A stretch of DNA of 64,000 nucleotides from positions 1 to 64,000 of the forward strand of contig JAXGMI010000002.1 of assembly GCA_040768745.1 (NCBI GenBank). Reading direction: 5' to 3'. Of this stretch, positions 1 to 13,180 are shown in pieces; position 1 is the first letter of the stretch, and each line of letters begins with the position of its first letter. The DNA comes from Desulfomicrobium sp. Its GTDB lineage: Bacteria; Desulfobacterota; Desulfovibrionia; Desulfovibrionales; Desulfomicrobiaceae. The translations under genes and the position numbers were made by a program. Below the pieces are notes generated by a model. It was not told the DNA's origin. It made no database searches and saw only the letters and a program-made list of their open reading frames with translations.

Positions 1-804
1 GTCAGGACCGGGATAACGGAAGTGCGTAGTGCGAGGTGCGTAGTGCGTTTCAGGCTCTCGAACTTCGGTTCTCGCACTTCGCACTCCGCACTTCGCACTC
101 AAAAACACCGGCCAGCGTTCCTGTAAAAAGGCGAAGAATGCCTCATCGTCCGGAACGATTTCGGAGAGCGGCCAGGCTTTGAACCCATCATGGCCTTTCA
201 GAGCCTGGATGAGCCGCTCGGCCAACATCAGCGGAATTGGGAGCTTGCTGTAGTGCAAGCGGAGCAAGGCGCGAAGCAGCTCCACCTCGTTGGCGATCAG
301 CTCAGCGGCGATGCCGAACACATGACGGAGAATGAAATCCTTGGTGGCGTTGTCGCCCATGCGATCCGGCGGCGACTTGCGCTGGGCCTCAAAAAGCGAA
401 TCCAGCAAGCTCCGGTCGAGCTTCTCGATGACCGGGTAGCTCAGATTGGGAAAGAGATCCCCCAAGTTGAACGACAGTTTGCGGCCCGCCTGGAGCAAGT
501 CGTAAGGCAACGATTCCAGCTCCGCATCCTGCAAGCGGAGGACCACCACCAGGTCTGTGTGCTCACCCCGGTCCCAGATCGAACGGTACTTGGACTCATA
601 GGCGTATCTGAATTCGACCGGGTCACTGAACTCGATCAGGTCGAAGCCGCGCCCGCGAAGCTCCAAGGCCAGCTTCTCCTCGGTCAGCAGACAATCCGGG
701 TCCGCGACCAAGGTCAGCTTGCTGACGTTGGGCACAAAGTCGTTCAGGATGGCGTCTCGCCAGGAGGGAGAGTGCGAAGTGCGTTGTGCGGAGTGCGATG
801 TCAT
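1..804 (-). CDS. pglZ: BREX-3 PglZ-family phosphatase, N-terminal part (runs off left edge)
   Basis: Manual translation from ATG 804: MTSHSAQRTSHSPSWRDAILNDFVPNVSKLTLVADPD...EFRYAYESKYR...ERWPVF...YPGPD, open to base 1. It follows the helicase in BREX-3 order and is absent from the ORF track because it is truncated. Confidence 0.8.
   Translation of the reverse strand, partial: MTSHSAQRTSHSPSWRDAILNDFVPNVSKLTLVADPDCLLTEEKLALELRGRGFDLIEFSDPVEFRYAYESKYRSIWDRGEHTDLVVVLRLQDAELESLPYDLLQAGRKLSFNLGDLFPNLSYPVIEKLDRSLLDSLFEAQRKSPPDRMGDNATKDFILRHVFGIAAELIANEVELLRALLRLHYSKLPIPLMLAERLIQALKGHDGFKAWPLSEIVPDDEAFFAFLQERWPVFLSAKCGVRSARTEVREPETHYAPRTTHFRYPGPD
21..100. repeat. Inverted pair of heptamer tandem arrays (family A, RAGTGCG/CGCACTY) inside pglZ
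   Basis: agtgcgt-agtgcga-ggtgcgt-agtgcg (21-47) and ctcgcac-ttcgcac-tccgcac-ttcgcac (71-98). The pglZ frame reads through both. Confidence 0.9.
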
Positions 805-1175
805 TCTCTTGTACTCCGATCCAGTGATGTACGAAGTCCGCCTATTGCCCGACTCAGGGTGATGCATTTTTCGCAGATATTGGAGCAATCGGATTCAGAA
901 ACATATCCCAGCGATTTTGCGAGCTGAATCTGGCTTCTTACTTCTGCGCATGATCCTCGGGCAATGGACAAAAACTGTTTAAACTCTTGTCTGCTGTATC
1001 GTTCGAAGCCCTCGGCGATGTTAGACATCACTGAAACGGATGCACGCTGAATCTGATCCCGAAGCCCCCAATCTTTGGAAAACTCGCCATCCCTCGTTAG
1101 ACCGTAAATTGTCACGGACAGGTCATGGGCCATCTGCCAGATTTGCAAGTCCTCGAATCGTTCGACTTTGCTCAT
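801..1175 (-). CDS. Four-helix-bundle protein #1 (23S rRNA IVP / bAvd-like family)
   Basis: MSKVERFEDLQIWQMA...[23 protein letters not shown]...[17 protein letters not shown] signature. ATGA overlaps at both ends. Flanked by family A arrays at 771-797 and 1178-1210. Confidence 0.92.
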   Translation of the reverse strand: MSKVERFEDLQIWQMAHDLSVTIYGLTRDGEFSKDWGLRDQIQRASVSVMSNIAEGFERYSRQEFKQFLSIARGSCAEVRSQIQLAKSLGYVSESDCSNICEKCITLSRAIGGLRTSLDRSTRE

Positions 1176-12749: not shown

Positions 12750-13147
12750 GGCAACTCCTTCGTCGTTGCAGGGGCGAGGGACGAGGGTTTAGAGGCGAGT
12801 TTGGCCATCAACCCGTTGGTCATTTTGTTGATTTCTACTTGTAAACTGAGAATAAGGCCGAGCTGGTCAGTTGAGAGATACCCGAGTCGATGGGCAATCA
12901 GTAATTGGGTCTCAACCTCTGCCAGTGAACCCTTTGAGATTGACAAGAACCGATGGAATTCTTTTGTTGAGTTTCTTGCATGGCCTTCAGCAATGTTTGA
13001 TGGAATCGCAACAACGGCTCGTCGAAGCTGATTCGTCAATCCATATAACTCTTCCGTAGGAAAAGTTCTGGTTGCTTGATAAACCATTTCAACCAAATCC
13101 AACGCTTTCTGCCAAACAATCAAATCCTTGTAACTCTGCACGCTCAT
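12746..13147 (-). CDS. Four-helix-bundle protein #4
   Basis: [15 protein letters not shown]...[30 protein letters not shown]...[18 protein letters not shown]. Low GC. ATGA overlaps with brxF and brxC. Confidence 0.93.
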
Positions 13148-13180
13148 ATCTCGTCCCTCACCCCTAACTCCTCGCCTCTC
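12770..13180. repeat. Heptamer family D (AGGGRYG/CRYCCCT) inverted arms at 12770-12800 and 13150-13180
   Basis: aggggcg-agggacg-agggttt-agaggcg-ag against ctcgtccctcacccctaactcctcgcctctc. Confidence 0.8.

Follow-up and report, generated by a model that had tools for sequence, protein, structure and literature searches.

Small PF05635 genes and their heptamer arrays in a BREX-3 operon suggest a protein-plus-repeat element whose spread would replace host sequence

To our knowledge, no function has been assigned to proteins of the PF05635 family, referred to here as IVP proteins. Relatives of these proteins have been described in two settings. In Coxiella, RNase III cuts the rRNA intervening sequence (IVS), in which tandem heptamers lie upstream of the open reading frame (S23p) (PMC4990558). 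The same source reports that IVS distribution is sporadic and apparently horizontal, for Coxiella and, as cited there, for Leptospira, and that a homologous IVP is a homopentamer. The Avd protein of DGRs is also a pentamer, in which all five protomers contact an RNA stem-loop with flipped bases between protomers (10.1101/2023.10.23.563531). Separately, heptameric repeats have been described in Xanthomonas (GGGAATC) and Nostoc (GGGGA(C/T)T); the excess of such repeats in bacteria was noted there as unexplained, and the term S23 does not occur in the main text of that paper (PMC4692102). The literature searched, in which subscription journals are thinly covered, held no description of an element combining an IVP gene with heptamers.

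The BREX-3 operon presented here offers four protein-repeat pairs side by side, together with matched empty alleles and gene-less hairpins. The association between gene and repeat is far beyond chance and is not specific to BREX, and it points to a protein-plus-repeat element spreading by replacing host sequence. The reading preferred here, tentatively and at a little under even confidence, is an element with a REPIN-like layout whose protein ring would read about five cognate heptamers per end on DNA and would spread via host recombination.

The window, meaning the whole stretch of 64,000 nt that was analysed, is the start of contig C2 in a Desulfomicrobium genome (G000) of 3.09 Mb. Its host operon runs brxF-brxC-pglXI-(DUF3800 cargo)-helicase-pglZ and is of type BREX-3, with brxF, brxC, pglXI, the helicase and pglZ all found; the contig begins within pglZ, so brxA, if present, would lie beyond the contig start. 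On the minus strand are brxF at 13144..13638 (NF033453, 200.5 bits), brxC at 8906..12749 (PDLC02482, DUF6079), the pglXI methyltransferase gene at 5590..8472 (PDLC02541), the helicase at 1172..4144 (a match to the BrxHI/HII model, PDLC02500) and the truncated pglZ at 1..804 (NF033449 (PglZ_3), PDLC02558). A frameshifted DUF3800 cargo gene occupies 4733-5580, between pglXI and the helicase. Single-base deletions are dense across 4700-9830 of this assembly, giving pglXI many single-base frameshifts. The helicase also contains, at 3746-3810, a palindromic insert of about 27 nt that keeps the frame, is unrelated to the heptamers and is missing from close alleles. A prophage-like region adjoins the operon and includes a D12-class adenine methyltransferase gene (45005-47401); GGACT, glutamine amidotransferase, DUF5049 and amidoligase genes (13956-16801) lie between BREX and the phage tail genes. 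Beyond 14 kb, a Pfam search of the 23 larger ORFs identified phage structural genes and found no transposase and no reverse transcriptase (RT).

A first-pass annotation of this DNA had described four paralogous genes, each with its own heptamer family, and this is confirmed by the PF05635 and TIGR02436 profiles and by PWMs of the repeats. Genes A (801..1175), B (4170..4568), C (8462..8879) and D (12746..13147) all lie on the minus strand, co-oriented with the operon. All four match both profiles above cut-off, A, B and D at 127-134 bits (PF05635 126.8, 128.7 and 133.7 bits, respectively) and C, which is frameshifted in this assembly, on both of its halves; they are the sole over-cutoff PF05635 matches in the genome. 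The single-base deletions in gene C and in parts of brxC and pglXI are probably assembly errors, because the letters missing from patch S8 in brxC are present in contigs of four public runs, a metagenome contig spans gene C with 4 gaps, and C is intact in the related locus L017, where its patch is 92% identical. The annotation had placed all four genes at BREX junctions. This applies to A, C and D, which overlap the start or stop codons of their neighbours (the start of A overlaps the helicase stop and its stop the pglZ start; the start of D overlaps the brxF stop and its stop the brxC start), but not to B, whose patch splits the native helicase N-terminus.

The predicted structure of protein B is a four-helix fold (pLDDT 94) like those of 2GSC, 2RLD and Avd (4DWL), with a TM-score of 0.79-0.81 to 2GSC. 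Since the solved homologues are pentameric, with 2GSC and 2RLD having 5 chains each, the window proteins are expected to be pentameric rings as well. The DGR Avd models stay below cut-off for the window genes (PF22296, 27-30 bits against 40; NF033474, 24-26 bits against 80). Across the array-flanked genes, matches are to PF05635 only, plus weak bAvd, and a RAYT tyrosine/HUH transposase has no match among them. The search of annotated phages gave no match, and the Atlas search returned PF05635 clusters only. No catalytic motif or partner enzyme was identified for the IVP genes, which counts against the preferred reading. PF05635 is found in 86 of 151 sampled genomes of this phylum, and IVP genes are under purifying selection, with dN/dS of 0.02-0.29 in the 22 measurable of 32 pairs and the other 10 saturated.

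Four distinct heptamer vocabularies, families A-D, accompany these genes, with pairwise similarities of 0.62-0.75. The arrays form inverted pairs that face inward, and many sit within BREX reading frames and are translated. A whole-genome scan for period 7, at a threshold of 16/21 matches, returned 15 matches; nine fall in window 1-9325, and of the six elsewhere, five on C1 resemble low-complexity runs and one is on C3. That the families are local in their own genome holds, as the PWMs match window 1-13.2 kb (A 6, B 3, C 5, D 2) and otherwise one weak C3 site only. A lone weak D-like array is seen at G000:C3:240788, at a great distance from all IVP genes. Past window position 9800, TRF detected no period-7 array, the D arms falling under its threshold. 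For 10 of the 11 gene-less arms in the window, the best-matching family is that of the nearest gene; in the eleventh, a single-base deletion breaks the register. Arm length has its median and mode at five units (46/135 and 64/140 arms), a mode that is censored by the roughly four units needed to detect an arm. In window 1-14000, Rfam matched nothing, and the repeats listed include no template/variable repeat pair.

The arrays mark nine replacement patches, four with a gene and five gene-less. The loci of the best 80 of 354 brxC relatives served for comparison, and alignment to these orthologous loci bears out the suggestion that the cassettes were acquired as units: empty alleles about 94% identical are found, and close alleles are 93-94% identical outside the patches and are without arrays. 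At eight two-anchor sites, 40-251 nt of host sequence is replaced with no target duplication, and patch edges lie 0-80 nt from an arm. Cassette A (S2, 763-1215) has 453 nt in place of 40 nt; its 3' arm (762..803, unit AAGTGCG/GAGTGCG, by TRF and PWM) provides the N-terminus of pglZ, and its 5' arm (1176..1215, by empty-allele comparison) is translated as the helicase C-terminus. Patch S4 (3941..4626), with 686 nt in place of 78 nt, consists of family-B arms (unit AGGACTG; 3940-3990, 4120-4196 and 4586-4627 by PWM), gene B and a foreign helicase N-terminus. It severs the native helicase N-terminus, a fragment of which is recognizable by translation at 4600..4727 on the minus strand, and provides a replacement. 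Diverged direct repeats lie on either side of gene B; a circle that integrated at an arm could have left such an arrangement. Cassette C (S6, 8335..8924; arms 8415-8462 and 8872-8912, unit CGAGTTN) occupies the brxC-pglXI cargo junction. Cassette D (S9, 12750..13189; arms 12765-12801 and 13141-13182, unit AGGGRYG) has 440 nt in place of 63 nt.

The gene-less patches lie in frame inside BREX genes. S1 (15..107) is an inverted pair of family-A arrays within the open pglZ frame, and S3 (1787..1961) has family-A arms flanking a diverged homologous helicase segment, with 175 nt in place of 151 nt. Family C contributes a hairpin in pglXI (S5, 8113..8219, 107 nt versus 41-47 nt), a hairpin patch in brxC (S7, 9217..9379, 163 nt in place of 97 nt) and arms flanking a diverged brxC segment (S8, 9590..9831, 242 nt in place of 196 nt). 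While S3, S5 and S7 keep the frame in the window, S8 is 8 nt shorter here than in relatives and is in frame only in relatives' and read copies. In other loci, the length difference between filled and empty alleles is divisible by 3 for all 11 filled patches within ORFs. The sequence beside or between the arms is homologous to the replaced host segment and has diverged from it conservatively. Among 15 comparison alleles, with the methyltransferase variable region and the DUF3800 cargo gene left out, unmatched tracts of at least 120 nt carry arrays in 9 of 9 cases; array-free internal unmatched tracts number three, of 55-85 nt. Array-free donor alleles for the interiors of S8, S3 and S4 were not found in the 80 loci (best 80 of 354).

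Inverted arms within a transcribed operon could instead be an RNA-level module like the 23S rRNA IVS, in which base-pairing of the arms in the transcript creates a substrate for RNase III or a binding site for an IVP ring. Such a module would tune long acquired operons, in stability or elongation, and would spread by ordinary recombination and selection. S1, S3 and S5 do fold well as RNA (z of -4.5, -4.7 and -4.2, respectively), the heptamer-bearing Coxiella IVS with its S23p is a precedent for RNase III cutting (PMC4990558), and the four genes share the orientation of the operon, with A, C and D overlapping the start or stop codons of their neighbours. Avd binds RNA, and RNA is the only ligand in nucleic-acid complexes of the IVP/Avd fold found in the literature as covered, which weighs against a DNA-reading ring. 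S7 and S8, however, fold no better than shuffles (z -1.2), arm mismatches in 106 cassettes show no excess of G-U (98) over A-C (83), and unit order is without effect on pairing (0.858 versus 0.857 after unit shuffling; n=87, p 0.84). Co-evolution of the arms as a stem was rejected on the last two tests. As the arms bear no sign of selection for base-pairing, they look like two independent strings of one vocabulary, facing inward as binding arrays. Cleavage would also disrupt the in-frame patches within ORFs, one cassette (L331) is antisense to its host genes, and RNA-run contig joints at cassette edges fit empty alleles, with no clean excision among the joints listed, contigs being a weak test. 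An RNA-level role is regarded as unlikely.

Polymorphism among BREX-3 loci provides a second line of evidence. Arrays are present in 9/9 loci with an IVP match, one of them a remnant and two near-identical, and in 8/71 loci without one (best 80 of 354 brxC relatives). Contigs from digester and landfill runs carry cassettes A and D with 0-1 differences alongside empty alleles, and metagenome contigs hold filled and empty alleles together. An RNA-run contig over cassette A with 25 differences was considered as a different backbone; the positions of the differences are not given, and it lends no such support. On the brxC tree, filled states are scattered, and shared patches resemble one another no more than their flanks do, so a recent sweep is not seen among them, which counts against the preferred reading. 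At S8, loci L017, L033 and L040 share 250 nt and common flanks with different arm vocabularies: both arms are C-like in L033, the 5' arm in L017 is of a GAGTGGC type like the arm of that locus's own D-like gene, and L040 combines a D-type 5' arm with a B-type 3' arm. The S5 family is C in the window, A in L019 and L059 and GAGTGGC in L031, with flank and loop common to the window, L019 and L059 despite the C versus A arms. Three vocabularies occupy another brxC loop in L031, L033 and L040, a loop that is empty in the window. Since the same site holds different heptamer families in different loci, the arms appear to have been exchanged or rewritten in place. At L059:22203-22387, a copy of cassette A has lost most of its IVP gene and retains both arms, a route from full cassette to gene-less hairpin.

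To ask how far the pairing extends, about 220 related genes overall were compared, comprising a phylum set (110 of the 150 PF05635 matches listed, from 352 in total) plus metagenome and viral loci. A period-7 array lies beside 67/96 full-flank genes in the phylum set, 51/56 in the metagenome set and 21/26 in the viral set, in total 139/178 in these three outside sets versus 7/2000 control windows. In the first set, 80/113 genes have an array; the 33/113 with none at threshold count against the preferred reading. Arrays occur on both sides of 54 genes, inverted in 44 and direct in 10. Five cyanobacterial plasmid loci (L331-L335) have IVP genes with heptamer arms, one cassette lying between cas6 and cas4 and another (L331) antisense between ribonucleotide reductase genes. 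In the phylum-set flanks (L089-L198), period-8 arrays lie near 23/96 genes and period-9 arrays near 18/96; other repeat systems may share IVP gene flanks.

Heptamer type tracks protein subfamily even where synonymous sites are saturated. Pairs with 65-75% protein identity and at most 45% identity at four-fold sites have a mean heptamer similarity of 0.84 (n=139) versus a background of 0.58, in 105 cassettes picked for matching arms whose pairs are non-independent and weighted to the B-like clade. Units with a TGAG core accompany most B-like proteins, and GRGT[TC]-type units go with C-like proteins. The first-pass annotation had inferred paralogue-specific pairing and proposed co-phylogeny as its check. 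The pairing finds support in other genomes and the closer proteins do share similar heptamers, whereas the overall Mantel test is not significant (rho 0.04; 247/2000 permutations as high). Heptamers match in 25-40% of pairs at 55-90% protein identity and in 0.3% of pairs below 45%, and the loss of co-variation below about 55% counts against the preferred reading. Columns R62, H66, A77, G112 and R115 (B numbering) are, as an uncorrected lead only, candidates for specificity. Distal arrays match the local gene in 40/111 cases versus 1.7% expected, in keeping with the gene-less arms of the window. The remaining 71/111 do not match the gene of their locus, and the annotated confinement of each family to the surroundings of its own gene does not survive as a strict rule: G189 (the genome of L019) has A-family hairpins but lacks a gene of type A, and no PF05635 match was obtained in the genomes of L033 and L059 (G191 and G192).

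These data also bear on a neutral account, in which slippage-prone repeats are inherited together with a cargo gene, ordinary recombination reshuffles them between BREX alleles, and the protein does not recognise them. Co-inheritance alone would yield co-phylogeny, orphan arrays without a matching gene exist, and the brxC-pglXI slot is a general cargo site whose acceptance of many other inserts is counted against the preferred reading. Such an account is nonetheless scarcely probable, given that units retain their sequence next to genes whose synonymous sites have reached saturation, that arrays sit on every long foreign tract in the genes compared, that period 7 recurs so widely in the outside sets, and that arm orientation is fixed (86 versus 13). 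The 86:13 figure was also considered as a transcription-linked polarity, with the G-rich arm first; an inverted pair reads alike on both strands, and the figure speaks for inward orientation only.

The Avd-like fold and the short patches (about 100-700 nt) could alternatively suggest retro-patching in trans, in which an IVP acts Avd-like for a borrowed RT and cDNA of an arm-bounded RNA replaces the homologous segment and rewrites the arms. RVT_1 occurs in 16/29 IVP-rich versus 5/20 IVP-free genomes (p 0.045, with kin not independent), the latter being those listed among genomes without a PF05635 match. Reiterated arms of about 0.5 kb in L079 and L318 also fit this account. These arms (L079:15515-16951 and L318:763-1511) are expanded, with AACTCGC-type or GGGAAT-type units filling 0.2-0.6 kb and repeated copies of the junction, and reflect either active repeat amplification or an assembly artefact. 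The annotation had noted no RT in the window, and this extends to the whole genome, in which RVT_1 (PF00078) is absent at 99.99% completeness. Moreover, 13/29 IVP-rich genomes, two of them single-contig, are without RVT_1, and the interiors of patches are protein homologues that have diverged conservatively, not mutagenised copies. Retro-patching is judged improbable.

With nine patches in one operon, recurring at the same loops of BrxC and PglXI, the element might be taken for a regulator or diversifier dedicated to BREX, editing the defence operon to the benefit of the host. Such a special action on BREX, as the annotation had proposed, is not upheld: the design surrounds most PF05635 genes elsewhere, in unrelated contexts, and 63 of the 80 BREX-3 loci (best 80 of 354) are array-free. 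PADLOC has no match for A, B or D, and neither 'four-helix' nor 'IVP' occurs in the main text of a 2026 BREX survey (PMC12839542). A BREX-specific role is very improbable.

Onto the patch anatomy, the polymorphism between near-identical alleles, the co-variation of protein and heptamer and the purifying selection, the preferred reading places the following mechanism. The element would be a small selfish or commensal IVP gene with inward arrays of about five degenerate 7-mers and gene-less copies alongside. Each IVP subfamily may read its own heptamer on single-stranded or opened DNA, with about one unit per ring subunit and one array per strand. Less securely, the bound ends might help an arm-bounded segment to copy into a homologous locus via host recombination, such that both cassettes and gene-less patches pass from allele to allele, and re-templating gives arms other vocabularies. 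BREX-3 would be the host only, and selection on BREX-3 would keep patches in frame and translationally coupled. A bolder version, possible but doubtful, holds that IVP pentamers are sequence-specific repeat readers driving transposase-free homing, with five of their own heptamers per end, allele replacement, in-place arm rewriting and in-frame editing of host proteins. If this homing reading were true, it would give PF05635 a function and the heptamer-repeat excess of bacteria a cause. If recognition is real, the rings and their repeats make up a family of mutually orthogonal pairs, and selfish DNA has a new way of remodelling proteins in frame. This locus contributes the set of empty alleles, the anatomy of replacement, apparent arm rewriting and four pairs in one operon.

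Compared with known systems, the element departs in a defining feature from each of rRNA IVSs, REPIN/RAYT, IS/MITE and DGRs. The BREX type 3 genes (brxF, brxC, pglXI, helicase and pglZ) form the host operon, of which the cassettes are not part, and most orthologues are without them (PMC12839542). IS and MITE insertion entails a target-site duplication, whereas at the eight two-anchor sites sequence is replaced and no target is duplicated. The likeness to DGR Avd lies in the fold and in a pentamer that binds nucleic acid between protomers, and DGRs too replace a short homologous segment (10.1101/2023.10.23.563531, PMC10053308); in contrast, the window genes fall below Avd cut-offs, in a genome with no RT and with no template/variable pair listed. 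The Xanthomonas and Nostoc repeats are likewise degenerate 7-mers, mostly of four units, and those of Xanthomonas often form convergent inverted pairs; they are described as quadruplex candidates, whereas many vocabularies of the window type are without G-tracts (PMC4692102).

The element is most like REPIN/RAYT in layout, with parts in common with ORF-bearing IVSs. In REPIN/RAYT, as described in the sources consulted, the gene is flanked by its own repeat class, the class is tied to the cognate protein, and there are gene-less inverted doublets and orphans left after gene loss (PMC3686654, PMC3337134). Inverted doublets of the cognate class are present away from the gene in the window element as well. 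Unlike REPINs, its units are tandem degenerate 7-mers, its events replace homologous sequence, and its copies enter ORFs and stay no farther than about 1 kb from the gene; REPINs number tens to hundreds of genome-wide copies, against one weak match outside the operon here. In the 23S rRNA IVS with an ORF, the same protein family lies inside terminal inverted repeats. The window element differs in occupying a protein-coding operon, between and inside BREX genes, instead of an rRNA gene, in having four paralogues with distinct vocabularies and gene-less in-frame copies, and in genes that are under purifying selection with no sign of stem selection. The ORF-bearing rRNA IVSs probably represent a special case of this element, perhaps the one that landed in rRNA.
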